A stretch of DNA of 59,134 nt, filler included, from Stramenopiles sp. TOSAG23-6 (lineage: Eukaryota), in the NCBI GenBank assembly GCA_900128565.1. It is 4 parts of 4 records of this genome, joined end to end, with 100 filler letters (N's around TTAATTAATTAA, not from the genome) between each part and the next. Parts side by side here need not be neighbours in the genome. Positions count along the whole stretch, not along the records: positions 1 to 14,783 come from LT636133.1; 3 more parts are not named here. One strand, given 5' to 3'. A program made the position numbers and the translations under genes. Under the pieces are notes generated by a model, which did no database searches, had not been told where the DNA came from, and saw nothing but the letters and a program-made list of their open reading frames with translations. Of this stretch, positions 2,509 through 35,829 are shown one piece after another; within the stretch, counting starts at the first letter, position 1, and each line of letters begins with the position of its first letter.

Positions 2509-5011
2509 AATACATGCCTCTTCCACGACATCTTCCCAATCGTCGCTTGAATGATTTCTGCTGTTATGATTCACTTCGGGTGTAATGTTATGATTACCGT
2601 CATCATCATCAATGACATCTGTTGGATTTTCATCTTGATTTTGATCATTCTCATCGAAATATTCATTTTTATCTTCTCCTTCATCTCCTCCCACTTGGTC
2701 TTCTTTAGAACTTCCAAATATAAATTCATACTCATCAGTACAAATGTCACCGGCTAGTTCAGGGAATATAGCTGCCATATTCTCTGCTTCGTCATCAGAT
2801 AATACGCCTTTCGCAGTAGCAGCACGAGCGAGAGCTGGATAGTCACATGTATTGTCAAAAAAAATGTCAAAAAAAACATGTTAGGTACAGAATTTTTTAT
2901 GTCAAATAAATAAATTTCAAATTCATGATGAAAACATACATGGACTCACCGACGTCATCAAATTTTCTATGCCTGTGGTGCTTACGGATTGATGACCAGC
3001 GGAACCCACGAGATGTGCACATCGTAGTAACCAATCATCAGGATTATACACATTTAATACTCGACCACTAACAACTTTACGAATAGAGTCCCAGGCATAT
3101 ATTGTGAAAAAATATGTTAAAAAAATCGTTAGGTACAAAATTTACTATGAAAAAAAAATTAGGTAAAAAAATTAATTTTGAAAACGTACATCATCTTGAG
3201 CCGATATTGGTAAACCTATTAGTACTACATCTTCAACTAAACCGACTGAGGCTTGCCCAACAGAAATTTCTTGGGCTAACTTTTTTAATGCATGAAATAA
3301 TACAGCAGCGCCAAGAGAAAAACCAACTAAGGAGATAGGTCTCGCGCCGTACTCCCGGCGTGAAATAACTGCAGCAAGTTTATTCCCCGTTTCAATGCTT
3401 TCCTCAGAAGCTTTGTTCCAAATGCGAAGAAAATTTTCTTCAAGTGTTTCATTAGCATTATCTGAGAAAAGGATGCAGTTGAATGGAGATACTACTCGAT
3501 GTTTTAGAAGTATAGGTGATGATCTAAGAAATATAGGCGATGCTGATGGCGGCTTATTTTCTATATTTTCTATATTTTCTAAATTTTCTGGATTTTCTGG
3601 ATTTTCTGGATTTTCTGGATTTTCTGGATTCTCGGCTTCGCTGAAATTTTGCTGTATTTGTTGATGATTGTCTAGTATTTCTGGCATATCAATGAGCTCT
3701 GGAGTAGAAAAGTTAGATGGTGACATCGGTGTACGTAAACCTGATGAAATACTCCCACCATCGCTATCACTGCAATCATTGTCGGAGCGAATAAGATGGC
3801 AATTTGAAAATGTGAATCGAACTGGTGTTGGAGAGCGCCGTGACATAAAATTCCAGTCAACATCTTTACCAAAATGTGGTACGAGACTTTGTATCACTGA
3901 ACCGAGACAAGCGAGAGGTTTATATTTCCATCGTAATGAATACAAATCCCAAAATCGTCTTTTCTGGCCACAATTCTTCATAATGTTATTGACAGATGTA
4001 GGTATCCTCCAATGATTTTCCGTTGTATAACCATGTCCATTCTGAAGAGTGACCCAACCACTAACACATATTGTCAATGCCAGACCGTTTCCTCGTTCAC
4101 ATATCTGAAGGTCAAAGTCATTAGTGAGCAACTGTCGCATTTCTTGGTTTTCTTCATTTTGACGGTGAAGAATTCGCCTTGCGGCTAGTTGTTTTGTTGG
4201 AGGGCGAGGTGGAGCAATCGATCGCCCAAATAATGATCTCAATAATGATTGTCGCTGTGGTAATACATTTGGTGTAGTGGAGAGAGTTGTTACCATTGAA
4301 TGTATTGCATTTCGTGCTACACAGCCAATGTCACTGAGCAGGTTCGTTTTAATGCTTCGTCGTTGAGAAACTCGTCCATTCGCCGAACGATGATGAACTT
4401 CTTCAGCAATTGCGCGATGAGACATGATAATTCGTAACTGTCGCGTGATATCACATTCTGCAGCAAACAGAGTACGTACTGAAATTCCAAATTGATTGCA
4501 TATTCGTCTGAAGATTGTTCGAACAAAAGCGTCGTACCGGCAATTTACAATAGATAAAATTAGCATATCTGCTAAAACATGAAACGTGGAATCTTTCGTT
4601 TCTTCCCACTCAGCGACATCAGGTCTAGAACTAGTCTGAAAAGAGGCAATATCTTCCTCATTGAGGCGTAAATCTTCAGAAATAGTGTGCTTGATGAATC
4701 TTTTGCGCCACTCTTCATTCGGTACATAATTTGTTTGGTGTAGAACGACTTTGGCTAATTTTAGCCTACCCCGAACTTCCATTTTCTGTACGAAAAGTCT
4801 GCCATTTTCAAGACTGTCTTCATTGTCTATAAGTACAAGGTATAAAAATTACAAGAAAATGAGAATATGTTGAACATCACATAAAAAGTATGAGAGAAAA
4901 TGTAATATTAAAATGAGGTTGGATGAGGACTGACTTACCTTGAAATACGATTTCCAGTCGCTGCCGAATACTTAAAATTGGGCTTTCGTTTTGATTCAAA
5001 GTTTCTGACAT
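2503..5011 (-). CDS. DUF726/TMCO4-like alpha/beta-hydrolase-fold protein; exons 5011-4939, 4826-3190, 3096-2940, 2846-2503
   Basis: RPISLVGFSLGA, VEDVVLIGLP and, after intron removal, AWDSIRKVVSGRVLNVYNPDDWLL, all typical of DUF726; every join is in frame. Confidence 0.8.
2847..2939 (-). other. Non-canonical intron GT-AT (93 nt)
   Basis: AT|GTATGTTTTC...CTGTACCTAAC...GACAATACAT|; restores frame. Confidence 0.8.
3097..3189 (-). other. Non-canonical intron GT-AT (93 nt)
   Basis: AT|GTACGTTTTC...TTTTGTACCTAAC...CACAATATAT|; joins SAQDD to AWDSIR. Confidence 0.88.
4827..4938 (-). other. Canonical GT-AG intron (112 nt)
   Basis: CAAG|GTAAGT...TACTTATAG|AC; joins MSETLNQ...VFQ in frame to the main exon; lacks the GTACCTAAC motif. 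Confidence 0.75.
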
Positions 5012-5353: not shown

Positions 5354-7666
5354 ATGCCGAGGCAAATTAATTTATTTTTTATTATATTGATTTCCTTCAT
5401 GGTAATCCGCACCTCTCAAGCGACTACTGTGACCGCAGCGGTGGATGCTCCCTTTTCCAAAACACCTGCGGATTTGGTGAAACAATTCAGTGGTGCTGAG
5501 AATGTTTTATTTCATGAACCAAATGTCGGATTTGATTGGTCAATGTCATGGGCAATTAAAGATAACACTACAATATATATATCTGTTCATGCCAAAACAA
5601 GTGGATGGGTCGGTCTTGGTATTGTAGAAGCAGCTGGGATGCGTGGAGCTGACATAATGATGGGTCACGTAGCGGACGGAAAGGGAATTGTAGGAGATTA
5701 TTACGCTACTAGTAACGCAAAACCTACCAAAGATGGTTGCCAAGATTGGACAATTCATTTTGCAGAAGAAGCAGGTGGTTATACCCTGCTTGTTGTATCT
5801 CGTAAATTAGTGACAACTGATATAAATGACAGGCCAATAACGACAAGTGGTAAGAAGAGAAGTAGCTTCCTGGCTGCGTATGGTGAGATCGACTCTAATG
5901 GTGAATACATGCAGCATACTAAATCTAACCGAATCAAGTTTGTAATTGATTTGAAAGATGGAAAATCAGTGAATAAAGCAGCATGGTCTGCACAAATGAA
6001 GAACTTACCTAGTATGGCATCTATCGAGTTAACGGCTGGATCCTGTGACGATGTTGATATATGTTTCATTTCAATTTCAATTTTTTTTTTTAATTGTACC
6101 AGATTTCGTGTGTAACGTTTTCTCTTTTGAAATATTTTTTCACATCGCATACTTATCATTCTGATGCTACCGAATTCGATAATCCAGATGCCAAAGGACA
6201 AATGATTGTATCTCAGACGTCTTCATGGCGGAAATATTGTTATGTATGTTTTATTTTTTTTTTAAACAAAAAAATCGAATTTTTTTTCGTACGAAAATTT
6301 GTACCTAACAATTTTTTTTAGATTTTTTTGAAATATTTTTCCAAAATACATGCATCCACTCACAAATGGGGGGTAGATACTTCAGTTTATAAGTATATAA
6401 AAGGCTTTGAAGGTTTGATAAGAACTCCTGCGACAGCGGGGAATGTGGCTAATATCATGTTCAATGCATACACAACAGATAATTGCGTTTACACTGCGAC
6501 TACTCCTCCCAAAACTCTTTGGGTCGGAGGGCTACAGTTTTTTGATGAATTCCCAGCGGGTGTTGGAATGACCTTTACTAGTTACACAAGTTTTGAACTG
6601 CGAATTACATATGATAATCCAAAATCTGAAACTGGCCTCAATGATGATAATGGAATTAAAGTTTGGCTTGACAAAACAAAGATCGACCATGAAGCAGGAC
6701 TCCTTTTATTAGGTGATCCAGCACAAGATTTAGTAAGACAAAAAATGTATGTTTTATTTTTTTTTCAATTTCATTTCGGATTTTTTTTTTCGTACGAAAT
6801 TTTGTACCTAACATTTTTTTTTAGATTTTTTTTGAAATATTTTTTCACAAAATATAAAACTTCCAGAAGGAAGATCTTTTTATACTTTTGAGTGCGACAC
6901 GAAAAAATGGATTGAATCTTCGCCCAGCCCAAGCCCAACGACATCGTTTACTGTATTTGAATCCATTCTTCACATGCATTCAAAAGGAGAGCAGATGTAT
7001 GTACGTTTTATTTTTTTTTCAATTTCGATTTTTTTTTTGTACGAAATTTTGTACCTAACGAATTTTTTTGAAATATTTTTTCACAATATATACGGCGATA
7101 ACAGAGAACAAAAAGGAGAACAAAGTGAATGTAATTGAATATTATGATTATGATCTACGAGATTACACAATGACAGATGTATATACCTTTAAAAAAGGAG
7201 ATATTATAACTACTAAATGTTACTATAATATACCTACAGGTGAAAATGTATATATGTACGTTTTATATAAATTTCTAATTTAATGTTTTTTTCATACGAA
7301 ATTTTGTACCTAACGATTTTTTTTTGAAATATTTTTTCACAATATATGGGAATTGCAGCAAATGAGGAAATGTGTATTGATTTTCTGTATTATTACCCCT
7401 CTGATAGTAAATTATCTACCTACTGTGCAGTAGTACCTAATAATGGCGTGGCACAAAGCATTGGTGGAACATATTTGGGAAATACAAAAATAGATGCTAC
7501 AGAACCTGGGATTAGAAAATTTGGAATTTCAGCTGGTACAGCGGACGATGCGACGTGTGATAAGACTAAAGCAATCATGTCTACATCTGCTATTAGTGTC
7601 GGTAGTAGCATTAGCCCCATGGGTGTAATTTTCATTAGTGCTTTGTTAAGCTCTTTTATTATATGA
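5354..7666 (+). CDS. DOMON domain + copper type II monooxygenase-like (DBH/MOXD1-like) protein, 6 exons
   Basis: Signal peptide; DOMON motif GWVGLG...MRGADIMMG; LHMHSKG and EEMCIDFLYYYP restored after removing five introns; hydrophobic C-terminus. Confidence 0.85.
6059..6150 (+). other. Non-canonical intron AT-AT (92 nt, degenerate)
   Basis: GAT|ATATGTTTC...TTTCGTGTGTAAC...GAAATATTTTTTCACATCGCAT|; restores frame. Confidence 0.7.
6244..6351 (+). other. Non-canonical intron GT-AT (108 nt)
   Basis: AT|GTATGTTTT...TTCGTACGAAAATTTGTACCTAAC...CCAAAATACAT|. Confidence 0.88.
6747..6855 (+). other. Non-canonical intron GT-AT (109 nt; 3' end uncertain by 3 nt)
   Basis: AT|GTATGTTTT...CGTACGAAATTTTGTACCTAAC...CACAAAATAT|; leads into the exon with the HMH motif. 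Confidence 0.8.
7001..7091 (+). other. Non-canonical intron GT-AT (91 nt)
   Basis: AT|GTACGTTTT...GTACGAAATTTTGTACCTAAC...CACAATATAT|. Confidence 0.88.
7256..7347 (+). other. Non-canonical intron GT-AT (92 nt)
   Basis: AT|GTACGTTTT...TTTTGTACCTAAC...CACAATATAT|G; restores YMGIAANEEMC. Confidence 0.88.
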
Positions 7667-7885
7667 AATATATAAGGCATAAAATCCATAAAATCTGAAT
7701 TTTTTTTTAATATATATTTTTCAATTTAAATTTTAAATTGCAAATTCGACCAAAAAAATAATTTCCGGTCAAACTGGTGGTCAACTCAACAGTGTTGACA
7801 TCAACAACACTCTTTAACTCTCTTAGACTTGTTGACAGAATTATAGTGTTTCACTTGAGCAAAAAACAACATTTCGACTTTGGTA

Positions 7886-9836
7886 ATGATGAGCTATTTT
7901 GGCCAAAGTTCACAAGATTTTATCCGATGCGGCATGGATTTAGCTTTGGGAGTTGGCATAGGTTGTATCATAGGTTGGTCAACCGCAAGAAATCAACGGC
8001 CGAGTAGTATCATCAAGAAAAGTAGACCCAAAGTCGGTGTGGGAGTTTTTGTAACAAACCCGAAACATCCAGGCTGTATTTTACTAGGTATAAGAAGAGG
8101 GAGTGATGGTTCAGGAACATATGCTTTACCTGGTGGGCATGTAGAGTTTGGTGAAAGTTGGGAGACCACAGCAGCACGAGAAACTCTGGAAGAGACTGGC
8201 CAAAAAATTACATCCATGAGGTGTGTAACTGTCGATAACTCTGTAAAGACAACTGAAAATTATCATTATATTACGGCATTTATGGTCGGTTCTACTTTTG
8301 ACGAACCCATTAACATGGAACCAGATAAGTGTGATGGTTGGGAATGGATCCTATGGAATAGTGAGTACGTTTTTTTTTTTTAATTTTTAATTTTTAATTT
8401 AATTTTTTTTCATACGAAAATTTGTACCTAAACACAAACAAACAAAAAATATTTTTTCACAATACGATAACTTTCCTACTCCTTTATTTAAAGGACTCGA
8501 AACAATTCGTGCTGCAGGTTTTTGTCCGTTTTCAGATCGGTCCAACTGTTCTCACGCACCAACAATAACGAATGACTCATTTACAGAAAAAGATGCAATT
8601 ATAGCTGCTGTTAAAGGGACGCGTGCTAGATATATGTTTTTTTTTTTCAATTTCGAATTTATTTTTTTATAGGAAATTTCGTACCTAACAATGTTTTTNG
8701 ATTTTTTTTGAAATATTTTACCAAAATAAATTAGCCGTGGTCACTGGAGCATCATCTGGAATTGGAAAAGCTTTTGCGGAACAATTAGTGAAATCTGGCT
8801 TTTTTGTTGTGTGTATTGCGAGGAGAGAAAAAATATTAAAACGTTGTTGTGAAGATATGAATAACTCTGGATGGTGTTCTTCTGTTGCTACGACGACAGG
8901 AAGAATACAAATAGGAACACTTCGGCGTCAAAATGGTGCTGGTTTTGCTATTCCATTTCCTGGTGACGTCACTAATCCAGAGTTTATTACACAAATAGGT
9001 AAAAAAATACATGAAATACTAGGTGGTTCTACTTGGTCTCCTCATCAAGGTAGAGGTATTGATGTTCTTATTCAGTCAGCTGGAACATTCATATGGGATA
9101 ATAGTATTGTACCAAAAACAAGCATATGGAATGGCATGAGAAAACAAAAACAACCTCATGAGGAACAATTAAATGTAAATTTCAATGCAAAAAAAAACAT
9201 TTTTGATATTTTAAAACCATATCTTAAAAGTAATACAATAGTAAACCGCTCTCAAAATGAAATTAGCTTTGGTAGTTGTATGTACGTTTTCAAAATTATT
9301 AGTTACATTATTTTTTTTTTATTTTTTTTTTAGTACTTGTAGAAAATTTCATACCTAACAAAACATTTTTACTACAAACGTTTTTTCCATATTGCATGGT
9401 CTTAATTGGATCACATGCTGGAAAATCTAATTTCGTAGAGGAAATAGAAGCGAAAGAAGGAGTTGGAGCAGCTGATAATGAACAGGGTTATATACAAAGC
9501 ATATATGTTTTATTTTTTTTCAAATTCCAATTTTGTTTTTTATAAAAATTTTGTACCTAACAAAAAACAATTTGAAATATTTTTCCAAAATACGTGCAAT
9601 CACTCCACAAATGGTTTTTCTCATTAGAATCTTCGAGTAATGAGCATTACAATACTGATAAAGGTATCAAATTAATTGATACAATTCGTGTTCTTTTGGA
9701 GGAGCCCGAGCTAATCGACACAACTCTTTCACGGAAGGAATTTTCCCATTTTGGTATTGATTGGTCTGATGTACAAAAGCCTATTGAATTTGCAGAAAAT
9801 ATTCTACGTACAAAAGTTTTCCCTTTTATTGAATGA
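7886..9836 (+). CDS. NUDT15/MTH2-like Nudix hydrolase fused to a short-chain dehydrogenase/reductase-like domain, 5 exons
   Basis: Nudix box GGHVEFGESWETTAARETLEETG and EPDKCDGWEW; continuous frame through four introns into RLAVVTGASSGIGKA (SDR TGxxxGxG). Confidence 0.72.
8365..8467 (+). other. Non-canonical intron GT-GA (103 nt) with GA duplicated at both junctions
   Basis: GA|GTACGTTTT...TTTGTACCTAAA...CACAATACGA|T; gives WNSDNFPTPLFKGL. Confidence 0.82.
8632..8731 (+). other. Non-canonical intron AT-AT (100 nt)
   Basis: AT|ATATGTTTT...TTTCGTACCTAAC...CCAAAATAAAT|TA; links the Nudix and SDR parts. Confidence 0.78.
9282..9397 (+). other. Non-canonical intron GT-AT (116 nt)
   Basis: AT|GTACGTTTTC...TTTCATACCTAAC...CCATATTGCAT|G. 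Confidence 0.78.
9503..9595 (+). other. Non-canonical intron AT-GT (93 nt)
   Basis: AT|ATATGTTTT...TTTTGTACCTAAC...CCAAAATACGT|G. Confidence 0.78.
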
Positions 9837-12563: not shown

Positions 12564-14642
12564 CTAATATTTTTTAACCCCCCCCCCATGTATTAGATAT
12601 GTATTTGGAGAGTTACTGCGGACTATTGCATCATTACAATCAGGCTTCCAGCAGTTTTGAATAAATTCGGAGTAAACAAATTTATGATACATTTTTTGTG
12701 TCGTCCTTATATTTTTCTTATCCTGAAAAAAGTAGGAAAAATTAGTGTCAAACGCATTGGTATATCTACCACACCATATCTCCTCAAGCCAGAGTTTCCC
12801 AAAAGATCGAGACAGACGATATATTGCATTTCCATTAATATGATTTATATTAGGGTTAAGGTATAAACTACCTCTATAAATGCTTCCCTTTACCCAAAAT
12901 CGGTCAGATCGGATTTCATTTTCTCCTCTATACGTTTCTCTCAAAATTGCATCAATCCATAGAGGTTGTATAGGTCTTACATCTGGTTCGTAATACATAA
13001 AGTGTGTATGTGTTGGTGAAAATATATCGAATTTGTAAAGGTAAATTTGTATAGTAATTTGGTAAGAAAAAAGAATTCTTAATTAATTTTTGAAAAGATA
13101 CATATTTTTCCCAGAAAAGATTTCTTTCTATTTCTCTACTTGCAATTGATTTTATTTCACCATCTTTAGCATTTACTTCGAAAGCTTGATCTGGATTATT
13201 TTGACCAACTACAAAAATATTAGTTATCTGTTTGCAACATCCTTCAGGATAAGTACATATATTGTGAAAAAATATTTTTTTTGTAAAATTTGTAAGATAC
13301 AAATTTTTTTGAAAAAAAAATAGATTCGAAATTGAAAAAAATAGAACGTACTTTCTTCCTTCAACATATTTGCATGAGTGACAATAATGCGCTGGAAGCA
13401 ATGTCTCCACATTTGTCGTGTCTTCTTAATATATTTTTGAATTTCTTGATATATACCTTTGCTGATTTTTAAGTCGTGGTAAAGCACAAGATCTACAATT
13501 GGACTATTTGTATTATTATATACAGGGTTAGGTAAAGTTAAAGGCAATATAATATCCTGTGTAGTAATATGACGTCTTTTGTTATTGACAATATTTTTTT
13601 CTCTGCATTGTAGTTTGGAGTCAAACATTTGGTTCATTGTTACTTTGGTGCGATTCCACTGCCGAGTAATGAAAGGAATCACAACAGCCAACGAGTGACG
13701 TTGTTTTATTGCATCAGCATAAGGTTTAGGATATATCTTCTTCCGTAAGTAAATTATAGAGCCAAGCATTCCTCTCGCACCATTTCCAGGATTAGACCAA
13801 TACTTTTCGTCGCGGTGAATATCACCGCCAAAACCGTTTATCGTAACCAAAATTGAAAATACGGACTGATCAAACCTATGATTAGAAGAATTTGAACCTG
13901 TTGGTGCAATGCAAGCGAGGCGATGCGCACAGCTGTAGGCCTTTNNNNNNNNNNNNNNNNNNNNNNNNNNNNNNNNNNNTGACTCTCGCGTGTAACCTTG
14001 TAATCCCCCAGCACACATTATTGCGTCACCACCAATGGTTTTAGCATCCGTTTGAAGCTCCAAAATAGTTTTGGGATGTGTCAATTCTAACACCTTGCCA
14101 CAGCACTTCCAGTCTGTGTGCAACCCTTCTTGGGAGACAAACCAGTGACCTTTCGAATGAATTGATGCATCGATTTTAGCCAGTGGTCCTACGACTTCAA
14201 CACCAGAATCCAAAAAAATAATTGAGGGGTATTGTATGAGTGCCATGTGCATTACAATTGGTTTCCAAGCAAAGTTTGACAGGTCACGAACGTGAGGAGG
14301 ATAGTCTTCAAATGGAAATGATTTAAGTATCACCCATTTCCAGAGGTAGCGGATACGAGTCGCTAGTTGAGCTGGGAGTCCCAGGTCATACACAACTACA
14401 GTTCGACCAGGTGCATTTTCATGGATAGACCCTACAAAGTTTTCCAACATATCGTAAAATAACAATTGACTTTCTGTTACATTCCGAGAATTGCTCACCC
14501 CGCAAGCTGTTACGATCTGTGGTGGGTCTATTTTTCCGCTAGCAGCGAACTGTTTGGAAAACCTTTGCGACAATCCCAAACTAAAAATCATACTGGGGAG
14601 CATAAAGAATAATACGAACATTAAAATATTACCACGAGCCAT
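12564..14642 (-). CDS. Secreted/type II membrane protein: DUF1647-like domain + second glycosyltransferase-like domain, 3 exons
   Basis: N-terminal hydrophobic segment; VVYDLGL, FPFEDYPPHV, FAWKPI, NHRFDQS; spliced C-terminus KYTHFMYYEPDVRPIQPLWID...HINGNAIY. Confidence 0.65.
13008..13101 (-). other. Non-canonical intron GT-AT (94 nt) with U12-like donor
   Basis: AT|GTATCTTTT...TTTACCTTTAC...TTCACCAACACAT|; in-frame join KY-THFMYY. Confidence 0.75.
13257..13351 (-). other. Non-canonical intron GT-AT (95 nt)
   Basis: AA|GTACGTTCT...TTTGTATCTTAC...CACAATATAT|. Confidence 0.78.
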
Positions 14643-14827
14643 ACTAAATTATTGAATAAAGTTGTATCTAGTATGGTATTACGTATTTGGTCTTCCAAAT
14701 AATTCAAGTTTTAAATTTTTTTTTAAATTTCAAATTCAAATGTGAGAAGAAATCATTTCAAAAAATGTAAATATCAATGGTCANNNNNNNNNNNNNNNNN
14801 NNNNNNNNNNNNNNNNNNNNNNNNNNN

Positions 14828-16111: not shown

Positions 16112-18116
16112 GTGATGGCTCGTAACGAGAGACATGTCTTACCAAGGCAACGTCGAGCACGTAAAACTCGCATATCTCCTCGTATTCCCAAGGGTAAAAG
16201 ATGTCAACCTCCTTCACCAGCAGAAAATAACAATTTGAGTCAAGAGGGATACGTTTTGGACAATCAAAGAGCTGGTCGGTCTGCTTTTCGAAAGCGACAG
16301 GATATGAAAAAGTCTCCTGCTGCTCGTAGAGCTGATAAAACAAATTTATTATTTGATGATAAAGACATATCAGTTTATCAAGCAAATAATAAAAGATATT
16401 TGATTTATCCTGAAGGTAACAGAGAACCAAATGGAGTATTTATCCAAAGTGTACCTTCAGATGGTCAGGACAAATCAGAATCAGAGCGGTGGACAACTAT
16501 AGATGATAATTGTCTTCGAAAAGCTGTCGCATTATATGGCGAGAATTGGCGTAAGATTGCTTCTGAAGTGAATAATAATAAATTCACTGATATTCAGTGT
16601 TTGCATCGATGGCATAGAGTCTTAAGTACACGAAAAAAGACAAACAATATTCAATGGGAACAATATGAAGATGATATACTGCAGGAGTGTCGTAGGAACG
16701 GTATTACTAAATGGTCTTCCATTGCAACATATCTTCAAGGGCGTACGGGTAAGCAATGTAGGGAGCGTTGGGTGAATCATATAAAACATAACACTTCTAC
16801 ATCGAAATCCTGGTCAGACGCCGAAGACAAATCGTTAATTAAAGTGTACAAAACCATTGGAGAAGATTGGATAAATGTGAAAAAGTTTCTTCCTGGTCGG
16901 AATGAAATTGATGTTCAAAATAGGTGGAAGGTTCTTTTGGCGACCAGGAAGGTTAAACCAAGTACATCAGTTGCTTTTCCCGTCGGAATTCAGGCAAACA
17001 TGAAGTCAACAATGTTACGAATGTTACCACCTCAAATGTCAAAGATGGCACAAATGGCACAAATGGCTCAGATGGGATTTGCCAATAATGCTACAATAAT
17101 GAGACAGTCAAATATTCCAGTTGCTCTACAGTTTACGAGTACTCCTGTTACGTTGAATACTGAATCAAAAAATGTTTCAAAAAACGTTTCAAAAAACGTT
17201 TCAAAAAATGTTTCAAAAAATGTTTCAAAAAATATTTCAAAAAATGTTTCAAAAAAACAAAATGCACAAAATAATGTAACAAGTTCGACAGATGCTAATC
17301 TTTTACGCATGGCAGAAGACTTTGTGGACGCTGAATCAAAACGACAGATGCAACATCATAACATTAAATTATCAGATTGTGATAAAGATTTAATGATTCG
17401 AGCTTATATAGCAGGAATGCAATTGAAACCAAATGAGCGAGAAGATACTGTTGGTACAGAAATTGATGGTCTACGATCTCAAAATGATTTGATGTGGGAA
17501 TTTGATGAAAGTGGTTCTTTTACTTTAGATCCTATGGGATTTTCATTCGATACTGAACCATTTGAAGGTTACTTACAATCAAATAACATGCTTTCAAATA
17601 AGGGTAGACCCAATGAAGTAAAGAAAAGTGACACTTTACCCGGTAACCAATTGTCTGAGATTCGTTCGACACCACCACAAAACTCAATCAAAGATAATCA
17701 ACACACTTTAGATCTTGGTGTTGGTTTAACTTGGGGATCTCTTGAATCGAATTTATTAGAAGATGCCAATGAAGACATTCTTGATGGTAATTTGGGAGGG
17801 GTAAACTACTCCATGCTAAACATGTACGTTTTTATCATTAATTTTTTATCTAAATTGTTTTTATTTTTGGTATGAAATTTTGTACCTAACAAAAAAAAAT
17901 TCAAATTTTTAAAATATTTTTTTTCAATACATGTCGCTCGAACACGGTGAATTAAAAAATGTATTACCGAAACTAAATGGAGAGACTTCTGATGCTGAAG
18001 AAATACCCGAAGAACTTCCAATGACCCTACCAGAAGACATAACAAACAACGCCGCCTTGATTGATAATTTAACGGTTGAATTACAAGGCAGAGGGGTACA
18101 TGTAGCAGGCTTTTGA
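16112..18116 (+). CDS. Three-repeat MYB (R1R2R3-like) transcription factor, 2 exons
   Basis: WTTIDDNCLRKAV...QCLHRW, GRTGKQCRERW, PGRNEIDVQNRW. Confidence 0.88.
17164..17255 (+). repeat. 12-nt coding repeat (SKNV)n
   Basis: TCAAAAAAYGTT x7. Confidence 0.9.
17824..17932 (+). other. Non-canonical intron GT-AT (109 nt)
   Basis: AT|GTACGTTTT...TTTTGTACCTAAC...TTCAATACAT|G. Confidence 0.85.
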
Positions 18117-19192: not shown

Positions 19193-20818
19193 ATGCGATA
19201 TTTCGAGATTGACACTAACTTTATTGGTGGAACCATGGCAATTCTTGCTGGAATTTTTTCTAATTTTGGTACTGCAAATCAGAAGCAAACACATTTATGT
19301 AACAATGCTTTACCACGTAGAATGCAAGGTAGTGTCTATTGGAAACAGCGTTGGATTCTAGGTTTATTTTGTATACTCTTTGGTGGTCTATTAGATATGG
19401 GTGCGTTAATGTATGCAACGCAAATAATCGTCGCTGTAGTTGGTGGGGCCGGAACTATTGTATCAAATGTTTTTTTTTGCACAATTTATCTTGGTGAAAA
19501 AATAACTATAAATGACTGTGTTGGTCTTTTTTTGATCCTTATATCAGTGGTTTTGATATCTTTCAGCACCCCTCAAGATAGAGTATATGAACTACATGAT
19601 CTTCAGAAAAACTTTGAAAGAGATGAATTTTGGCAATATTTGATGTACTGTTTCTTACTTTTATCCATGTTGCTTTTGTTATTGATGTATAATCTGTTTT
19701 GTTTTGATAGCAAAGAAAAATTTACGGCATTTCGTGCAAGAAGTATCAGTCCAAATAGAAGTCCAAAAAGTTCACATTTCGTAATGAATCGAGAAGAATA
19801 CACCCATATACCAAGTGCAACAGCTGAAAATAGATCATATCTAACGCAATCACTTAGCAAATTGAATAACTATCGTACAGCAAAAAATAGTACGCGTACT
19901 CTTAATAAAGAAGATCAGATACGGACGAAAGAATTGATGATTCAGACAAATTCTAATGTAGAAGAAATTAAAGAGGAGGACCCTAACCCTAACCCTAAAC
20001 CACTGACCAAAGGACAACTTCAAAAATCATTCGGTACAAAAAAATTTGAAACAATCTACGGATTTGATAAAAATGCTACAAATTCGTCTCTAATAGAAGA
20101 ACAACAATATCAAGACTTTTTAAGTCGTAGTAAAATGAATTCATTAATATATGCCATTATAGCTGGGATAATTGGTTCATTCACTGTTTTATTAGTTAAA
20201 TGTTTTTGTGAAATTGTTGAAGTGTCTTACCTTCCTGGACAAAAAACAAATGTCCATGATACCAAAAACACAATCTTACATTGGCAAGTCATGTTTGTTT
20301 TCATCATTTTCAAAAGAATTCAAAAGAATTCAGTTTTTTTATATTGTACGAAATGTTTTTTTTTNTACTTAATGGATTTCGAATTTAATTTTTTTTCACA
20401 CTACATGTTTTTTGCTATCGGAGGTTTATTTTGTGGTGCTTCACAGATTATACTTATAAATCAAGCTATTGAAATACATGATGCTCTTGGTGTTTTGTCT
20501 ACCTTTCAATTTACATGGATATTATTTAGTACAATTGGAGGAGTCATATTTTATGATTTACAACTTACAAAAAAAGATCAATATTTTTGTATTTTTTCTG
20601 TTATTTTATGTGCAATTTCCGTAACACTATTTGCAAATCGAAAACATGTTTTTGTGAATGATGTGGACAATATGACTATAACTAAAAATAATACAAGAAA
20701 TAGATGTATTAAAGAATTGAGCGTACAATCCAAAACTACTACAGAAAAAAATGCGTTAGAAGTAACAAATATTTTGGGTGATGAAAAATATCTAAATGCA
20801 GTGTATGGAAGTATTTGA
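19193..20818 (+). CDS. NIPA-type magnesium transporter-like (DMT superfamily), with one in-frame intron
   Basis: WILGLFCILFGGLLDMGALMYATQIIVA, YLGEKI, IAGIIGSFTVLLVK, INQAIEIHDA, GGVIFY. Confidence 0.8.
   Translation: MRYFEIDTNFIGGTMAILAGIFSNFGTANQKQTHLCNNALPRRMQGSVYWKQRWILGLFCILFGGLLDMGALMYATQIIVAVVGGAGTIVSNVFFCTIYLGEKITINDCVGLFLILISVVLISFSTPQDRVYELHDLQKNFERDEFWQYLMYCFLLLSMLLLLLMYNLFCFDSKEKFTAFRARSISPNRSPKSSHFVMNREEYTHIPSATAENRSYLTQSLSKLNNYRTAKNSTRTLNKEDQIRTKELMIQTNSNVEEIKEEDPNPNPKPLTKGQLQKSFGTKKFETIYGFDKNATNSSLIEEQQYQDFLSRSKMNSLIYAIIAGIIGSFTVLLVKCFCEIVEVSYLPGQKTNVHDTKNTILHWQVMFVFIIFKRIQKNSVFLYCTKCFFXYLMDFEFNFFSHYMFFAIGGLFCGASQIILINQAIEIHDALGVLSTFQFTWILFSTIGGVIFYDLQLTKKDQYFCIFSVILCAISVTLFANRKHVFVNDVDNMTITKNNTRNRCIKELSVQSKTTTEKNALEVTNILGDEKYLNAVYGSI
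20293..20406 (+). other. Degenerate non-canonical intron GT-AT (114 nt, in frame, stop-free)
   Basis: AT|GTTTGTTTTC...TTGTACGAAAT...TACTTAAT...TTTTCACACTACAT|G. Confidence 0.65.
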
Positions 20819-21666: not shown

Positions 21667-24600
21667 ATGCCGCTTCGCCTCGATAGTATTATTGAGAAAA
21701 AACTTTCTGCGCAGTCCGACCGTGTTAAGTCTGTAGATCTGCACCCAAAGGAACCATGGGCACTTACTGCATTATACAACGGGCATTTGTTTATATGGAA
21801 TTACAACACAGAGCAGCTAGAAAAGTCGTTTGAAGTTGTAGATTTACCTTTGAGATGTGCGAAGTTTATTGCCCGAAAGAGTTGGGTCGTATGCGGAGCT
21901 GATGACATGTTCATACGTGTTTATAACTACAATACACTTGCAAAGATTACAGAATTTGAGGCACATATGGACTATATACGTTATATTGAAGTACACCCGA
22001 CACTCCCATGTTTTCTATCCACTTCAGATGATTTACAGGTGAAACTTTGGGATTGGAGTAAAGATTTTTCGTGTACGAATGTGTATGACGGTCATATTCA
22101 CTACGTTATGATGGCAAAGTTTAACCCAAAAGACGCAAATTATTTCGCCACTGCTTCCCTAGATAAGACTGTAAAAGTATGGTCACTTGGATCATCTACA
22201 CCAAATTATACTCTTGAGGGACATGAACAAGGTGTTAATTGTGTAGCATATTATTCCGGTGGAGATCGACCCCATTTACTTTCTGGGTCTGATGATCAAA
22301 CGGTCCGTGTTTGGGATTATCAAACAAAGTCTTGTGTACAGCAACTTGAGGGTCATACTGCAAATATATCTTCTGTCGCGTATCACCCAATGCTTCCTGT
22401 TATAATTACGGGTAGTGAAGATGGCACAGTGCGTTTATGGCATAATACGACGTATCGTTGTGAAACGACTTTAAATTACGCCATGGAACGTGTATGGGCA
22501 CTTGACGTACAACCGCAGTCACATAATATTGCTATTGGATTTGACGATGGTACTGTTGTAATTAAACTTGGTAATGATAATCCTGTTGTGTCAATGGATA
22601 GAAATGGAAAAATTGTATGGAGCAAAAATTCTGAAATTGAAAGCGCAAACGTAAAAGGGATTGCTGCTGAATANGTACGTTCTTTTTATTTTTTACTTTT
22701 TATTTTTTTATTTATTTTTTTTTATAGTAAATTTTGTACCTAACGAAAATTTAATTTGTTTTTTGAAATATTGTCCCATAATACATAACTGCGCTGATGG
22801 AGATGCACTTCCCGTAACATCGAAACAACTTGGTCACTGCGATTTATTCCCACAGACACTTTTACATAATACGAATGGAAGTTTTGTTGCTGTTTGTGGC
22901 GATGGTGAATATATAATTTACACTGCAAGAAAATTACGAAATAAAGCATTTGGTAATGGACTTGATTTCGTGTGGCGTGATCAGGGCAGTGGTGATTACG
23001 CCGTTCGCGTTTCGTCGTCACGAATTCAGACATTTAAAAATTTCAAAGAACATCGTGTGATTAAGCCCCCAGGAGGTGCAACCGTTATATTTGGTGGTTC
23101 GATGCTAGCTGTAGGAAGCTCTCAAGAATGTGTTTGGTTCTATGACTGGGATACTGTATGTTTTATTTTTTTTTTTAACAAAAAAATCGATTTTTTTTTT
23201 TGAAAATTTTATACCTAACGAATTTTTTTTTCAAATATTTTTCCAAAATACATGGCGCTCTTGTCCAACAAATTGACGTTGCCCCAACAGCAGCATATTG
23301 GTCTGACTCAGCAGAATTAGTGACATTATGTTGTGAAGATACATATTATGTACTAAACTGTAATAGAGAACAAATATCTCAGGCTTTAGCAAATGGTGAA
23401 GCTGATGAAGACGGTGTGGACGGTGCATTTGAGCTATTACATGAAATCAGTGATACAGTCAAATCAGGTCTTTGGGTGGGAGATTGTTTCCTATATACTG
23501 TTGAAGGCAAATTCAATTATTATGTTGGTGGTCAAGTTATGTCCCTTGGGCACATTGATACGTCACTGTTCCTTTTAAATTACGTGGCCAAAGAAGATCG
23601 TGTTTTCTTATGTGATAAAAATCGGAAAATTGTGAGTTATTCTATATTACGGTCAACATTGGAATATCAGACAGCTGTGGTGCGAGAAGAATTCGAAACT
23701 GCAACAAGTATTCTTCCATCTATTCCAAAAGAGCAACATAATAAAATTGCAAAGTTTTTGGAGTCTCAAGGATTTAAGACTTTGGCTTTGAGTGTTGCCA
23801 CTGATCCTGATTTACGTTTTGAATTGGCTGTAGAATTAAATCAGTTAAATGTTGCAGCTGATATAATGAAAAATATTGTGGATAAAAATGAAAAAGTATT
23901 GGAACGGCATGATAATGCGAGTGGTATTTCTGCAGATTACGAATTGAAGTGGAAAAAACTAGGCGATTTAGCCTTAGCCCAATGTGATTTGGACCTAGCT
24001 CAGACTTGTATATCTCGAGCTGAAGATGTTTCAGCGCAGTTATTAATGTCAACTTCTATGGGCGATGCAGCTGGACTTGAAAATGCAGCAAAGCTCGCAG
24101 TTGCAAAAGGACGTACTAATGTTGCTTTTATTGCCTTCTTTTTATTGGGTAAAATAGAAAGTTGTTTAAAACTATTAATTGATGCTGATCGTGTTCCTGA
24201 AGCAGCTTTCATGGCTAGAACGTATTTACCCTCTGAAGTTCCAAAATTAATTGGGTTATGGCGTGAAAATCTTCAAAAAGTATCAAAGAGAGCTGCAGAG
24301 AGTTTAGCGGATCCATCGGAATATGCGAATCTGTTCCCTGATATGAAGCTAGCACTTAAAGCTGAAGAAATGTTTAAACAAAGACGTGGAGAAGCACCTG
24401 TTCCAGCATCGAAATATCCTGAAGCTATGCATGAAACTGATCTAGATTTGATTGCTATTATGCGAGATATGGAAGCGAATGGTGGTGACATTGAACGTGC
24501 ACTAGCAGATAATGGCGCTGGTGATGATATGAATGAAAACAATGATGAAGTAGTAAATACTCAAAATAAAGAAGAACTCGAGTTAGATGAAGCATACGAG

Positions 24601-29534: not shown

Positions 29535-29734
29535 ATGTATTTTGGAAAAATATTTAAAAAAAAATCTAAAAAAAATTGTTAGGTACAAANNNNNNNNNNN
29601 NNNNNNNNNNNNNNNNNNNNNNNNNNNNNNNNNTTAATTAATTAANNNNNNNNNNNNNNNNNNNNNNNNNNNNNNNNNNNNNNNNNNNNAAAAAAAAAAA
29701 AAAAAAAAAAAAAAATCTTTAGGGAAAAAATTTC

Positions 29735-29777
<43 letters not shown>

Positions 29778-30155
29778 GATGAAAACAAACATTTGATCTA
29801 TTTCTATTCCTATCAAAATCAAAACGAAAATCAATTGACTGTACAAAATTAAAGTCAAACAGTCGAGGGACTTTTGCATTTGTAATATCTGGTATTGTGT
29901 TTATTGATATAAAATATTGATTTTTACGTTTATATGGGCGTTTGAATAACGGACCTTGTATTTTGATACCATATGTCAATTTTTTTTTTTCTCGTTAGGT
30001 ACAAAATTTCGTACGAAAACTATAAAAAAAAAAAAAAAAAAAAATTTGATATGTCTTTTTTTTTTTCTTTAGGAAAAAAATTTTTAAAAAAAACTAAAAA
30101 AAAAAAAAAAAAAAAAATGAAATTTGAAATGTATAAAGAAAAACAAACTTGTGTA

Positions 30156-30479
30156 TTAAACACATGCAACATCAAACGTAAATGCGCCGCGTATTGAGTC
30201 CATATGCCGAGCAGTTGTAACAAAGACTCGACCAAGTTCTGCTTTGCAACCATTACAGTAAAATCGTCTAAAAGCACTACCTGTCCCTTCAACTTCCATA
30301 TTTTCTACAACTGTGACCCCTGTTGCGGTCCCAAGGGATACTGTTTGTTGATCTTGGTCAGCAGATAGAAACGAGTATGTATCTCCTACAACGCACTGGC
30401 ATTGTCGACACTGAAATATTGAAGGGGAAGCAAGTTCTTCCTCAATCATTTCCTGATGAGCTTGTGAGGAAGGTGTCAT
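30156..30479 (-). CDS. Mis18/Yippee-family zinc-binding protein (3' end uncertain)
   Basis: IFQCRQCQCVVGDT...FYCNGCKAELGRVF...IRGAFTF. Confidence 0.72.
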   Translation of the reverse strand: MTPSSQAHQEMIEEELASPSIFQCRQCQCVVGDTYSFLSADQDQQTVSLGTATGVTVVENMEVEGTGSAFRRFYCNGCKAELGRVFVTTARHMDSIRGAFTFDVACV

Positions 30480-31056: not shown

Positions 31057-33749
31057 ATGCAGAGTATTACTCTTATAATACTGTTTTTCATACTTTCAAC
31101 CAACGTAACTGTTGTATATACGTCTTTGACTACACGTCCGGATGCAATAAAACCGTATTTATTTCATGGTTGTTTTGATATATTACCTGACAACCTCCTA
31201 TCTAAGATTATTCATGTCTCTACAACAATTGATGCCTCTATTGCTCAATGTGAAATAGTAGCAAGGTTATCCCTTTTTGAAGAGATACATTCTAGATTTG
31301 AATTCAACAATGATACCGTACATACATTCTTTGTTATACACAAAAATAAAAATGAAACGAATCAATTTCATTGTAGTTGGGGATTTCAAAATACCGAGGA
31401 ACATGACACATTTTATCCTATAATGAATAATAACCCTAACCCTACCCATACGCCACAAAAATGGGGGTCATATGTTTCATCTACATTTGAATATTCATCC
31501 AATCTATCAAAGAATCAAAAAATAAATCGAGATTTTTGTGATACTTTATATGATATCACTAATTTTGAAAATACAACGAACCCTAACCCTACATTTGAAA
31601 ATGCAACAAATCATCATAAAAAAAAAACGATACAAAAAAAAAACATATATAGTGTATATACGCTGATTCCTAGTGTACAACATGTAAGTTTCTATTATAT
31701 TGTAATGATTTATATATCAACACAAGTTTTAACAAAATCAATACAAAATATTTTTTTTTTCTACAATTTTTTCTTTTCGTACAAAATTTTATACCTAAAA
31801 AAAAATCGAAAAAATCGAAAAAAATCGAAAAATTAAAAAAAAAAAAAATGAAATATTTTCTTACAATATTTCTACAACTTCTCAAAAAGGCACAAAGTAA
31901 TTATCATTATGTAGGCTGCTTTGCAGATCGTACACCACATGCCGTAGTTAAATGGTACAAAAAAATGACATTGACGAATTGTGCAGGAATTGCATTCTCA
32001 ACACGAAATCTCTGGTTTGTGCTTGAATTTCCACAAGGTTATGGTCTTGGTCTTGAGGGTCATGCTAATTGTGGAATGGGTGGTACATACATGGCAGATG
32101 GTGAATCTATTCCAGTATGTTCTATGTAGTGTTTTGATTATTATTCCAAATTTTTTTCAAATTTTTTTTCAAATTTTTTTTTGTACCTAACAATTTTTTT
32201 TCAAATTTTTTTTTCTTCAATTTTAAATTTCAATTTTCAATTTTTTTTTTTTGTAGAAAATTCTGTATATACAAATGTTTTTTTTTTCTTTGGTGTATAT
32301 ATTGTACAACACATGATATATATTGTGCAAGTAAAAAAGATAAAAATGGACATGCCTTAGGTGGACCGGGTGTCATGTCTGTGTTTGTCTATAGTAAAAA
32401 TTCAATTTCTTTAGGTACGAAAATAAGTACAAAACAAAATATACAAAATTTAGCATCATTATATACTGAATATACTACACTACAAATATTGGAACCACAG
32501 AACCCTAACCCTACTATAAACAGTCCAGATTCTTTTATGGACAACAATGATGATTTTGTGTCAACACGAAATAATGGAAAAAAAAAAAATTCGAAAATAA
32601 AAAATGATTCCAAAATTGTACCTACAAAAAAAAAAAAAAAAATTTGAAAATTTTGAAAATTTTGAAAATCCAGACAATCAACTACAAAAATGTATACAAA
32701 AATGTGTTGAAGTCCGTTCATACAGACGATGTATAGATTTGACAGATCATTCAGGATTTCGTGTTACACTGAGGATTAAAGCGTTTGAGCCTGTTTCATT
32801 TGCTTTGTCACAAACATGTTTATATTATTTTCGAAACAGAAAAAAAGTGGATGAATGTATACAGTTGATATATAAGCTACTTCAAGAAAAAAATGGGGGA
32901 TTTATCAAAAATACAAAAAATAAAAAAAATAAAAAAAATACAAAAAATACAAAAAATACAAAAAATACAAAAAATACAAAACAATCGGATTATATACAAT
33001 TTGAGTGTGTGTGCAATGGTCATTCTGAAACATCTGAGTTGTCGTGTAATGGTCGAGATGTATGTTTTATTTTTTTTTTTAGATTTTTTTTGAATTTTTT
33101 TATAGTAAATTTTGTACCTAAACAAATTTTTTTTTTTTTTTTTTTTATAGTAAATTTTGTACCTAAACAAAAAAAAATTGAATTTTTTTTTTTTTGAAAT
33201 ATTTTTTTGAAAATACATGCTGTTGAATTTGCAATTTGGAATACTGATCGAGAAAAACAATTTGAAATGTATAATTGTTTTAATGATGATTCTTTTAGAG
33301 ATGATTTTCAGAAAATAATTGGTCAATATATACAGAATAATTCAACAAAAAAACATATTATTTTTAATGATGATAATAATAATAATAATAATAGTAATAC
33401 TACTACTACTACTACTACTAATAATAATACGAATAATAATAATAATAATGATGATACTACATGCAACCCTAACCCTAATTTAAATAATGATAATACTACT
33501 ACAAATGAAATTATCTCAAAATGGAGAAAAAAATGGTTATTACAAAATACAAAACAAAAAGTAACAAATAATGAATCTTGTATTTTATTTCAACGATATA
33601 ATGGAATATCACCTCTTTTTGCTTTACACGCTGATGTTGTCGTGTTTAATACACAAGTTTGTTTTTCTTTATACATTTCAAATTTCATTTTTTTTTTTTT
33701 TTATAGTTTTTTATAAAAATTTTGTACCTAACGAAAAAAAAAATGACAT

Positions 33750-33799
<50 letters not shown>

Positions 33800-35226: not shown

Positions 35227-35829
35227 TTTTTTTTTTCGTAAAAAAAAATATATATTGCCATTCAAATAGAATACTCTGCAATGATGAGATGGAAAACAAA
35301 ACATTTTCAACTTGAATCTCAATTATTAGTACAAAAATTAAATAATGAATTTTATAGAAAGCAGTGAATGTTTTATTTTTTTTTAACAAAAAAATCGATT
35401 TTTTTTTTATAGTAAATTTTGTACCTAACAAATTTTTTTATGATTTTTTTTGAAATATTTTTCCAAAAGACATGGGCTCAAGAAATGATTCTTGAATTGC
35501 AAAATTTGTTAAAAAACAATGAAATTTCTAAAAAAAAATCTGAAAATATTTTTGATGAATTAAACATCATTATAACTCAGACTAACCCTAACCCTAATTG
35601 GAGTGTGAGTAGCGTCTTGGAAAATTTTATACAAAATTTTGTTTTCATTCAACCAAAACCAAAATTAAGACAAAAATTTCTATATTATCTTCAATATTGT
35701 GAGAACAACCATCAACTTCAACAAGGTTGTATCATGTACATTTCCAAAATTAATTTTTTTTTTTTTTTTTTTTACCAAATTTACTACGAAAAAAAAATTT
35801 TTAATTTTTTTTTTTTTTTTTTACAAAAA

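Follow-up and report, generated by a model that had tools for sequence, protein, structure and literature searches.

In a 59,134-nt stretch of DNA from Stramenopiles sp. TOSAG23-6 (GenBank assembly GCA_900128565.1; four parts joined end to end, the whole called the window here), we describe a repeated element that very probably represents a high-copy, introner-like family of short spliceosomal-type introns, with ends other than AG, in a stramenopile-like marine protist. The copy at 8363-8467 is taken as the focal one. A sequence-only reading had interpreted it as an intron derived from a transposon, with inverted termini and a duplicated flanking dinucleotide.

The family was delineated with a profile. 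An nhmmer model built from 15 copies gave 55 matches in 59 kb, of which 38 reach E<=1e-3 (lowest value 6e-27), and an 18-mer core occurs 16 times at three or fewer mismatches, against 0.14 expected. Boundaries could be fixed for 34 copies, all 34 of which interrupt open reading frames (ORFs) in sense; among the first 30, the boundaries of 25 were set by motif alone and those of five with the help of the reading frame, and the four added later were all that could be defined, taken without choice by flank. The introns measure 91-309 nt (91-159 nt in the first 30) and have 11-24% GC, in a window of about 33% GC. Their consensus comprises an exon ending in AT, GTAYGTTTT, CGTACGAAATTTTGTACCTAAC, TTTTTTCACAATAC, a further AT and an exon starting with G. 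In an alignment of 18 copies the similarity spans the full length, beyond the signals alone, with blocks that run from GTAYGTTTT through the middle CAATTTCGAATT, runs of T and a near-palindromic CGTACGAAATTTTGTAC leading into CCTAAC, to more T and GAAATATTTTTTCACAATAC. Pairs of copies are on average 74% identical (range 58-92%), and subfamilies and internal duplications are apparent among the copies, while weaker matches on the opposite strand coincide with the palindromic core of sense copies. In a seawater DNA run, X3, the summed depths of contigs with 92% or higher similarity come to 2685, 5978 and 26700 in three bins that hold copies, against about 7 for unique sequence; such sums do not equal copy numbers, and they point to thousands of copies in the genome as an order of magnitude, which agrees with 38 in 59 kb if the genome is tens of megabases in size. 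A 16-nt core gave 28 loci in viral contigs, none of them a true copy by nhmmer, and two family patterns sought in metagenome contigs and one in genome contigs gave 0 matches.

Several lines of evidence suggest that the copies are removed as introns. When each copy is cut out from the first base of GTAYG as far as the second nucleotide after ATAY, 29 of the first 30 keep 30 or more open codons, and shifting the 3' cut by -2, -1, +1 or +2 nt leaves 5, 2, 6 and 2 open frames of 30, respectively; the frames of the four later introns are also open after removal by the same rule. Spliced in silico, gamma-tubulin yields 478 residues without a stop, 421 of 473 identical to the EukProt model P0003, and coatomer beta' yields 964 residues, again without a stop and gapless against the model P0121 across both junctions. 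Removal from the pyruvate dehydrogenase (PDH) E1alpha gene gives the junction YRYHGHS-M-SDPG. In a polyA metatranscriptome, a 347-nt contig (X9 record 30) lies on 58069-58258 and 58351-58485, with 0 and 1 differences, and skips 92 nt that correspond to the element of gamma-tubulin intron 1 plus 2 nt; this joint is absent among the DNA joints listed. The remaining listed joints between element copies resemble assembly jumps between repeats, and for most exons no RNA contig spans an intron. Every intron is of the family type in the genes that were followed, with two in PDH, three in gamma-tubulin, two in coatomer and five in a Gfo/Idh/MocA-like oxidoreductase, and no GT...AG intron was recognised in these genes. 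Both the existence of a repeated introner-like intron family and the claim that the excised unit is the element plus 2 nt, each part of the sequence-only reading, are thus upheld by the 38 profile matches, the 29 restored frames and the 92-nt RNA joint.

A number of observations weigh against this reading or temper it. Intron 42233 (minus-strand introns are named by their higher coordinate) is the only one of the first 30 to fail the rule, being in frame with the element plus 1 or plus 4 nt, and the frame test is partly circular for five of the 30 because their boundaries made use of the reading frame. The RNA-backed junction is a single one, from an assembled contig rather than raw reads, and unspliced copies are present in the RNA libraries too, with a high summed depth. 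Two further candidates, 31684 and 33657, are off-rule or have unclear exon frames, and were excluded from all counts. With regard to mobility, no intergenic or antisense copy occurs among the 38 nhmmer matches in the window, and neither a presence/absence allele nor an autonomous partner was seen; a transposase was sought with Pfam only in the 10 largest ORFs, whose domains are host-type only, with no transposase. Antisense copies in exons would be lost under both models of spread considered below, and the missing intergenic copies are therefore more telling, though 59 kb of a compact genome is little.

The focal copy consists of GA at 8363-8364, GTACGTTTT from 8365, then CATACGAAAATTTGTACCTAAA and, up to 8465, TATTTTTTCACAATAC, followed by GA and TAAC. 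The element proper, opening with GTACGTTTT and closing with CACAATAC, occupies 8365-8465, so the end coordinate 8467 given earlier takes in the second GA; the GA said to stand on both sides of the copy is indeed read there. Its features are as follows.

8363 to 8364, plus strand: GA, the final two exon bases upstream of the focal copy, read in the sequence.
8365 to 8373, plus strand: the 5' motif GTACGTTTT (family consensus GTAYGTTTT, resembling a yeast-type 5' splice site).
8411 to 8432, plus strand: the core CATACGAAAATTTGTACC and branch-like motif, with CTAAA at 8428-8432 (CTAAC in 24 of 30 copies).
8450 to 8465, plus strand: the 3' block TATTTTTTCACAATAC, terminus of the element proper.
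8466 to 8467, plus strand: the second GA, which would be excised along with 8365-8465 (or by an equivalent shifted cut).

The ORF upstream of the focal copy encodes a NUDIX domain (Pfam PF00293, E=4.5e-16, profile positions 2-113 of 134), and it stays in frame only with 103 nt (8365-8467) taken out, giving AGT GA|T AAC and 68 open codons downstream. Since GA stands on either side, three cut positions would give the same mRNA. Over 7859-9281 (plus strand), the NUDIX exon is joined in frame, via family introns, to an exon starting with the short-chain dehydrogenase motif TGASSGIG; this is either a NUDIX-short-chain dehydrogenase fusion protein or two genes wrongly joined.

The signals at the element ends are strongly conserved. 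The opening five bases are G, T, A, Y and G in 27, 29, 28, 29 and 28 of the first 30 copies, with GT opening the motif in 27 of them, and ATAC or ATAT stands directly ahead of the final 2 nt in 21, as anticipated for a core that opens with GTAT or GTAC and closes with ATAC or ATAT. CTAAC occurs in 24 of the 30, its A lying 32-61 nt (median 39) from the 3' end; GTAYGT together with TACTAAC-like boxes are the classical yeast-type signals of the major spliceosome. Only two of 30 copies have AG as the terminal dinucleotide, whichever register between -3 and +3 is taken, in line with the earlier remark that the 3' end is not AG, and no AG is found anywhere between the branch motif and the 3' end in 22 of the 30. 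The inverted repeat ATGTAT...ATACAT that had been proposed is present in the consensus; only 4 nt of it (GTAT/ATAC), however, lie inside the element proper, and the repeat grows to 5-7 nt when flank bases are counted. RNAalifold predicted 0 conserved pairs across 18 copies with 8-nt flanks, so the short inverted ends seemingly form no stem. We also observed that the exon ends with GTAT right before GTACG (GTATGTACGTTTT) in three of the first 30 copies (6997-7005, 9278-9286 and 34546-34554), more frequently than by chance, and that in these the frame demands that the first GTAT stay exonic. In copies 6059, 8632 and 9503, A replaces the G of GTAYG (ATATGTTT) and the frames are still open across them, which is hard to square with G as the first intron base.

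The other family introns are listed here, each with its flanks given as upstream/removed dinucleotide.

2847 to 2939, minus strand: AT/AT.
3097 to 3189, minus strand: AT/AT, 3' ATAT.
6059 to 6150, plus strand: AT/AT; 5' ATATG (A for G), 3' TCGC-AT; 3' end set by reading frame.
6244 to 6351, plus strand: AT/AT.
6747 to 6855, plus strand: AT/AT; 3' AAAT-AT; end set by reading frame.
7001 to 7091, plus strand: AT/AT; exon closes with GTAT right before GTACG.
7256 to 7347, plus strand: AT/AT.
8632 to 8731, plus strand: AT/AT; 5' ATATG, 3' ATAA-AT.
9282 to 9397, plus strand: AT/AT; exon closes with GTAT ahead of GTACG.
9503 to 9595, plus strand: AT/GT; 5' ATATG.
13257 to 13351, minus strand: AA/AT; read through by the public gene model P0241.
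17824 to 17932, plus strand: AT/AT.
20293 to 20406, plus strand: AT/AT; 5' GTTTG.
22675 to 22786, plus strand: in coatomer beta', AN/AT.
23156 to 23253, plus strand: in coatomer beta', CT/AT; informative on the cut register.
29535 to 29790, minus strand: AT/AT; holds assembly gaps (N).
29956 to 30148, minus strand: AA/AA; second non-AT recurrence.
32115 to 32314, plus strand: CA/AT.
33060 to 33218, plus strand: AT/AT; core duplicated internally.
34550 to 34652, plus strand: AT/AT; exon closes with GTAT ahead of GTACG.
34764 to 35072, plus strand: long composite intron with two core copies, TT/AT.
35366 to 35473, plus strand: GT/AT; 5' GAATG.
41588 to 41703, minus strand: in the Gfo/Idh/MocA-like gene, AT/AT.
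42078 to 42233, minus strand: TC/AT; N gap inside; the rule breaks the frame (sole case of the first 30).
42364 to 42488, minus strand: degenerate, TT/AT; both ends set by reading frame.
42626 to 42758, minus strand: AT/AT; 5-nt junction repeat AGAAT.
42885 to 43027, minus strand: AT/AT; inserted CCCTAACCCTA; 3' end set by reading frame.
52699 to 52795, plus strand: PDH E1alpha intron 1, AT/AT; junction YRYHGHS-M-SDPG.
53001 to 53098, plus strand: PDH E1alpha intron 2, AT/AT.
54059 to 54151, minus strand: GT/AT.
57724 to 57828, minus strand: gamma-tubulin intron 3, TT/GT; conserved Phe needs the upstream T retained.
57952 to 58049, minus strand: gamma-tubulin intron 2, AA/AT; conserved Met needs the downstream T retained.
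58260 to 58351, minus strand: gamma-tubulin intron 1, AT/AT; the polyA-RNA contig links 58258 to 58351, 92 nt skipped.

A putative 5' site at 34886 was rejected, as it falls within the long intron 34764-35072. An isolated fragment of the palindromic core (AGTACGAAATTTCGTACC..) lies at 39235-39283 beside TTAGGGTTAGGGTTA, between two ORFs, and is the sole family-like piece seen without clear placement inside a gene. An exon end (..VFNTQ) with the 5' part of a family intron forms an inverted duplication, at about 29950-30180 on the minus strand and about 33640-33870 on the plus strand; the sequences after the intron differ, and one may be a chimeric or dead copy.

The flanking dinucleotides bear on how the copies were inserted. 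Flanks could be read for 33 introns. The exon upstream ends in AT in 21 of them, AA in three, TT in three, GT in two, and GA, CT, TC and CA in one each, whereas the last two removed bases are AT in 29, GT in two, GA in one and AA in one. The earlier estimate that the exon ends in AT in about 24 of 37 copies is of the same order as the 20 of 29 readable among the first 30, and AT recurs after ATAY in 19 of those 20, much as had been described for ATAC. Identical flanks were found in 22 of 33 introns against 18.7 +/- 1.2 in 50,000 permutations (P=0.014), and in two of these the shared dinucleotide is not AT (GA/GA at 8365, AA/AA at 30148), where 0.24 would be expected (P=0.019). Restricted to the first 30 introns, the count was 20 of 30 against 18.2 (P=0.098), the AA/AA case having come with the four later introns. 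Ten of the 12 non-AT upstream flanks do not recur, their 3' dinucleotide being AT in nine and GT in one. Since AT is removed in 29 of 33 and stands upstream in only 21, the 3' AT is constrained in its own right and behaves like a fixed part of the element or of a splice signal; a modest locus-specific match signal, as duplication would give, is also present. The proposal that the 3' dinucleotide is simply the second copy of a 2-nt target-site duplication (TSD) is not established: the two non-AT recurrences favour it, the ten flanks that fail to recur and the excess of removed AT do not, and the flank correlation suggested as its check, once AT is excluded, is above chance (2 of 12) and weak as a rule. 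At 42626-42758, the junction repeat AGAAT reported earlier is confirmed within AATAGAAT / AATAAAGAAT, where the frame-consistent 3' end lies 10 nt beyond the consensus-like end. Taken together, the flanks fit an AT-preferring 2-nt duplication followed by drift, and fit equally well a TG...CA element placed between A and T without duplication. According to Gozashti et al. 2022 (PMC9860276), flank matches across introns cannot separate duplication from duplication-free insertion, and a flank repeat alike in nearly all copies makes a TSD indistinguishable from an insertion-site preference combined with the element's own ends.

To place the cuts we used conserved residues at the junctions, with k the number of bases by which both cuts sit upstream of the 'GT...NN' position. 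Intron 58049 (AA, GTATG...ATAC, AT, GG) reads Ile-Lys-Val at k=0 and Ile-Met-Val at k=1 to 3, and Met occupies the site in 8/8 fetched gamma-tubulins (N[IT]MVST). Intron 57828 (TT, GTAGG...ATAC, GT, C) reads Arg-Phe-Ile at k=0 or 1 and Arg-Val-Ile at k=2, with Phe again in 8/8; both residues are conserved in alpha- and beta-tubulins as well. At intron 23156 (CT/AT) the junction codon is Thr for k=0 or 1 and becomes Asn for k=2. In the 68 of 120 coatomer homologs that match the motif, the site holds T 36, S 15, E 12, D 4, Q 1 and N 0, and the closest relative, P0121, has T; an Asn at this junction, as suggested by an alignment of yeast and human coatomer (DWEN...), is contradicted by these 68 and was dropped. 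Only k=1 satisfies the three sites together, and it implies an excised unit N-GTAYG...ATAC-N, or TGTAYG...ATACA in the consensus. Intron 13351 (AA/AT) speaks on the other side, with Ser at k<=0 and Cys at k>=1: its site is D 45, N 18, E 4 and S 2 with one gap in 70 aligned homologs from a wider HMMER search, is moderately informative, and would weakly favour Ser over Cys. Intron 42233 fits no uniform register, and conservation of the terminal bases peaks at G...T (27/30 and 29/30; k=0) rather than T...A (25/29 and 27/30). Taken together, these sites speak against a uniform cut of either the 'GT...NN' or the 'NN GT...AC' type; k=1 is most likely the best single register, judged from these predicted junctions, and is not settled.

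Each copy brings along a set of signals, with GUAYGUUUU as the 5' motif, the palindromic core CGUACGAAAUUUUGUAC leading into a branch-like UACCUAAC whose A precedes the 3' end by 32-61 nt (median 39), a tract rich in U and a conserved non-AG 3' block UUUUUUCACAAUAC-AU. Excision would occur at the RNA level, from GUAYG through AUAY plus 2 nt, restoring the reading frame, and the cuts themselves most probably fall one nucleotide ahead of GUAYG and one nucleotide beyond AUAC. The agent would most likely be a spliceosome of the major type, tolerant of a non-AG 3' site; the window holds no small nuclear RNA (snRNA) gene (an Rfam scan of it at the gathering threshold gave 0 matches). The family would have spread by copying, so that each insertion would be born as a ready-made intron, and the route would be either transposition as DNA that duplicates a 2-nt target, preferably AT, or an insertion that duplicates nothing. 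The first of these, in which GTAYG...ATAC is a transposon resembling a miniature inverted-repeat transposable element (MITE) and splicing runs from GT to the end of the second TSD copy, is a tentative candidate. It draws on the non-AT recurrences and the overall excess of matching flanks, the longer junction repeat AGAAT and the short inverted ends, and it has precedents described in PMC11282704, where exonic TAC preceding MITE-derived introns of Fritillaria borealis forms the 3' site (Henriet et al. 2019, in PMC11282704) and Micromonas introners co-opt a TSD. It is opposed by the ten flanks that do not recur, the surplus of removed over upstream AT, the inverted repeat of only 4 nt within the element, the P of 0.098 in the first 30 introns, the Lys that a cut just before GT would place at 58049, and the lack of intergenic or antisense copies among the 38 matches and of a transposase in the 10 ORFs. 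In the duplication-free alternative, TGTAYG...ATACA, with TG...CA ends and a 5-nt inverted repeat, is the unit both inserted and removed, between an exonic A and T, and it spreads by reverse splicing or as a TSD-less transposon; we regard this as possible but doubtful. The Met, Phe and Thr met jointly only by k=1 favour it, as does the sense orientation of every copy seen within a gene, and by a hand tally, not a computation, it needs 8 changes at mismatched flanks against 10 for the 2-nt TSD. Yet it would place Cys at 13351, requires additional coincident changes for GA/GA and AA/AA, leaves the first exonic base after the cut as T in 29 of 30, oddly constant for an exon, and runs against the higher end-base conservation of G...T. 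Helitron-derived introners insert between A and T without a TSD and carry 5' TC, 3' CTRR and a subterminal hairpin; the position between A and T is compatible with the 1-nt register, whereas the ends here are TG...CA, the Helitron termini are absent and the only palindrome is central. Nor is any spliceosome known to place its cut a single base outside GU, which is a further point against this alternative. A bolder form of this alternative, which we consider rather unlikely, is that the whole intron complement of a free-living marine stramenopile was made or replaced by one such cassette, cut one base outside GUAYGU and past AUAC to leave UG...CA ends, lying between A and T without duplication and spread by reverse splicing or as a TSD-less transposon; if so, neither chemical step would use the GU or AG of nearly all eukaryotes.

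Three further explanations were considered. That these are normal introns, passed down vertically and not mobile, in an organism whose splicing depends on unusually extended conserved signals, appears improbable, even though all 34 defined introns share the motifs, no other kind of intron was recognised in the window and no direct sign of mobility was seen. Similarity extends over the full length, including stretches without a known signal role (CAATTTCGAATT, GAAATATTTTTTC), with subfamilies, internal duplications and nhmmer E-values down to 6e-27, and metagenome contigs at least 92% alike reach thousands of times unique depth. Moreover, the gene models of the closest relative, which is known from protein models only, are seamless across five of these positions, although these models may come from a predictor limited to standard introns. 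Less probable still is a U12-type (minor-spliceosome) or AT-AC origin, with the introns read as ATGTAYGT...CAATAC. U12 introns carry a 5' /RTATCCTT box and a TCCTTRAC branch box near the 3' end; the consensus shifted by 2 nt does read AT...AC, CCTAAC recalls the U12 branch box and three copies begin with ATATATGT, but the /RTATCCTT motif is absent (the 5' consensus being (AT)GTAYGTTTT), the branch motif at 32-61 nt from the end is far past the short U12 spacing, 12 of 33 copies would not begin with AT, and the junctions at 57828 and 23156 exclude the 2-nt shift. Elimination from the DNA itself, as for ciliate internal eliminated sequences, would account for the short inverted ends and for a repeated flanking dinucleotide of which one copy is retained, and is scarcely credible: DNA contigs of an independent seawater metagenome enter the elements at the same sites at unique depth, the joined form occurs only in the RNA library among the joints listed, the copies bear 5' splice-site and branch-type motifs, and the host is stramenopile-like, from a group not known to have nuclear dualism.

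The host assignment and the neighbouring genes provide context for the introner-like family. The window is eukaryote-like DNA with 539 N spread over 16 runs, and ARAGORN found 0 tRNAs in it. By homolog search, the nearest named relatives of the gamma-tubulin and coatomer are oomycetes and ochrophytes, and the two closest matches to conserved proteins are the EukProt models P0003 (gamma-tubulin) and P0121 (coatomer), which suggests a stramenopile-like host; it is an uncultured marine protist. DNA words of the window occur in a 2015 run, which may be the source of this DNA, and in three 2024 seawater DNA runs (0.48-0.76 of the sampled words in the 2024 runs), and seawater metatranscriptomes hold small shares of them. 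The EukProt protein P0241 is 100% identical to an ORF at 13227-14648 (minus strand), in the gene at 13.2-14.6 kb, and was the sole match in a first homolog search with that gene. Its model runs through the intron 13257-13351 into KEESTFYFFQFRIYFFFKK and then stops, the tail being translated intron, so the public annotation missed that intron; protein sets from this lineage are probably cut short or broken up at introns of this sort. At 45264-49622 (plus strand) lies an intron-free ORF of 1453 residues with nine WW-domain stretches and IQ motifs, and several other long genes are also intron-free; the family is therefore unevenly distributed among genes.

A second repeat is present in the window, a telomere-like 13-mer, AACCCTAACCCTA, which occurs 16 times against 0 expected in shuffles, starting at 19985, 29381, 31432, 31579, 32501, 33465, 34207, 34420, 35584, 39208, 40497, 41735, 41801, 41864, 41885 and 53215. 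Fifteen of the 16 lie within the longest local ORF, on the same strand and in the frame AAC CCT AAC CCT (Asn-Pro-Asn-Pro), and a shorter piece, CCCTAACCCTA, is also found inside the intron 42885-43027. These could be tolerated in-frame insertions of telomeric repeat, for example filler from break repair, or a family of 12-nt micro-insertions.

Turning to known systems, one close likeness is with the tunicate Fritillaria borealis, in which most or all introns depart from the GT/AG rule and have the features of repeat families, with short inverted ends and a flank repeat at the 3' cut (PMC11282704, PMC13326754). That species is called exceptional because fewer than 10% of its introns obey GT/AG (PMC13326754), and it combines an otherwise standard-looking spliceosome with a compact marine genome (PMC11282704, PMC13326754); its U2AF1 and U2AF2 are duplicated and diverged (PMC13326754). 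In Fritillaria, AG-AC and AG-AT are the commonest ends among many variants, whereas here GTAYGT is conserved, CTAAC is strong and only the 3' end is odd; in addition, one family makes up every recognised intron here, and the host is a stramenopile-type protist. The introners of Micromonas pusilla and Aureococcus anophagefferens are likewise similar short elements in hundreds to thousands of copies, each a single sense intron (PMC11282704, PMC9860276), spliced out with one flank copy so that mRNA length is unchanged, and AT-richer than the exons. They have clear TSDs (3 nt in M. pusilla), terminal inverted repeats and GY...AG ends, one often derived from the TSD (PMC11282704, PMC9860276), in contrast to the family described here, where any TSD would span no more than 2 nt and can seldom be told apart from a fixed AT, the terminal inverted repeat is 4-5 nt and there is no AG.

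Introners of the dinoflagellate parasite Amoebophrya also have ends other than GT/AG and short direct repeats over the borders that make the cut ambiguous (PMC7789003). They differ in having inverted repeats of 8-20 nt that act as exon-joining hairpins, direct repeats of 3-5 nt and no shared terminal motif (PMC7789003); in the present family no conserved pairing was predicted in 18 copies, and the motifs at the 5' end, branch and 3' end do not vary. The introner-like elements of fungi, for which spread by reverse splicing has been proposed, resemble it in their bias to genes and to the sense strand and in carrying complete splice signals; they have no clear TSD or terminal inverted repeat and end in canonical GT...AG (PMC9860276), whereas here a TSD is ambiguous, the 3' end is non-AG and two non-AT flank repeats hint at duplication. 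Nonconventional introns of euglenids share non-canonical borders, short border repeats and inverted bases near the ends; in those, a stable stem joins the ends, without 5' splice-site, branch or pyrimidine signals (PMC4770533, PMC11282704), whereas here the linear signals are strong and no stem is predicted. A literature search that included genome papers on marine stramenopiles from single cells and metagenomes, their supplementary files excepted, returned no description of introns such as these. If confirmed genome-wide, the family would be a protist counterpart to that of Fritillaria borealis and a case of extreme intron gain, with one family supplying all introns seen; introner surveys based on GT-AG annotations would miss it, and its simple, uniform departure from the rule would make 3'-site choice without AG directly testable. 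The kind is already known, from introners and from the non-canonical, transposon-derived introns of Fritillaria, Amoebophrya and euglenids, and the present family differs from these in three ways: a canonical-looking 5' site and branch box combined with a uniform non-AG 3' end, a single family that makes up all introns seen, and a stramenopile-type host.

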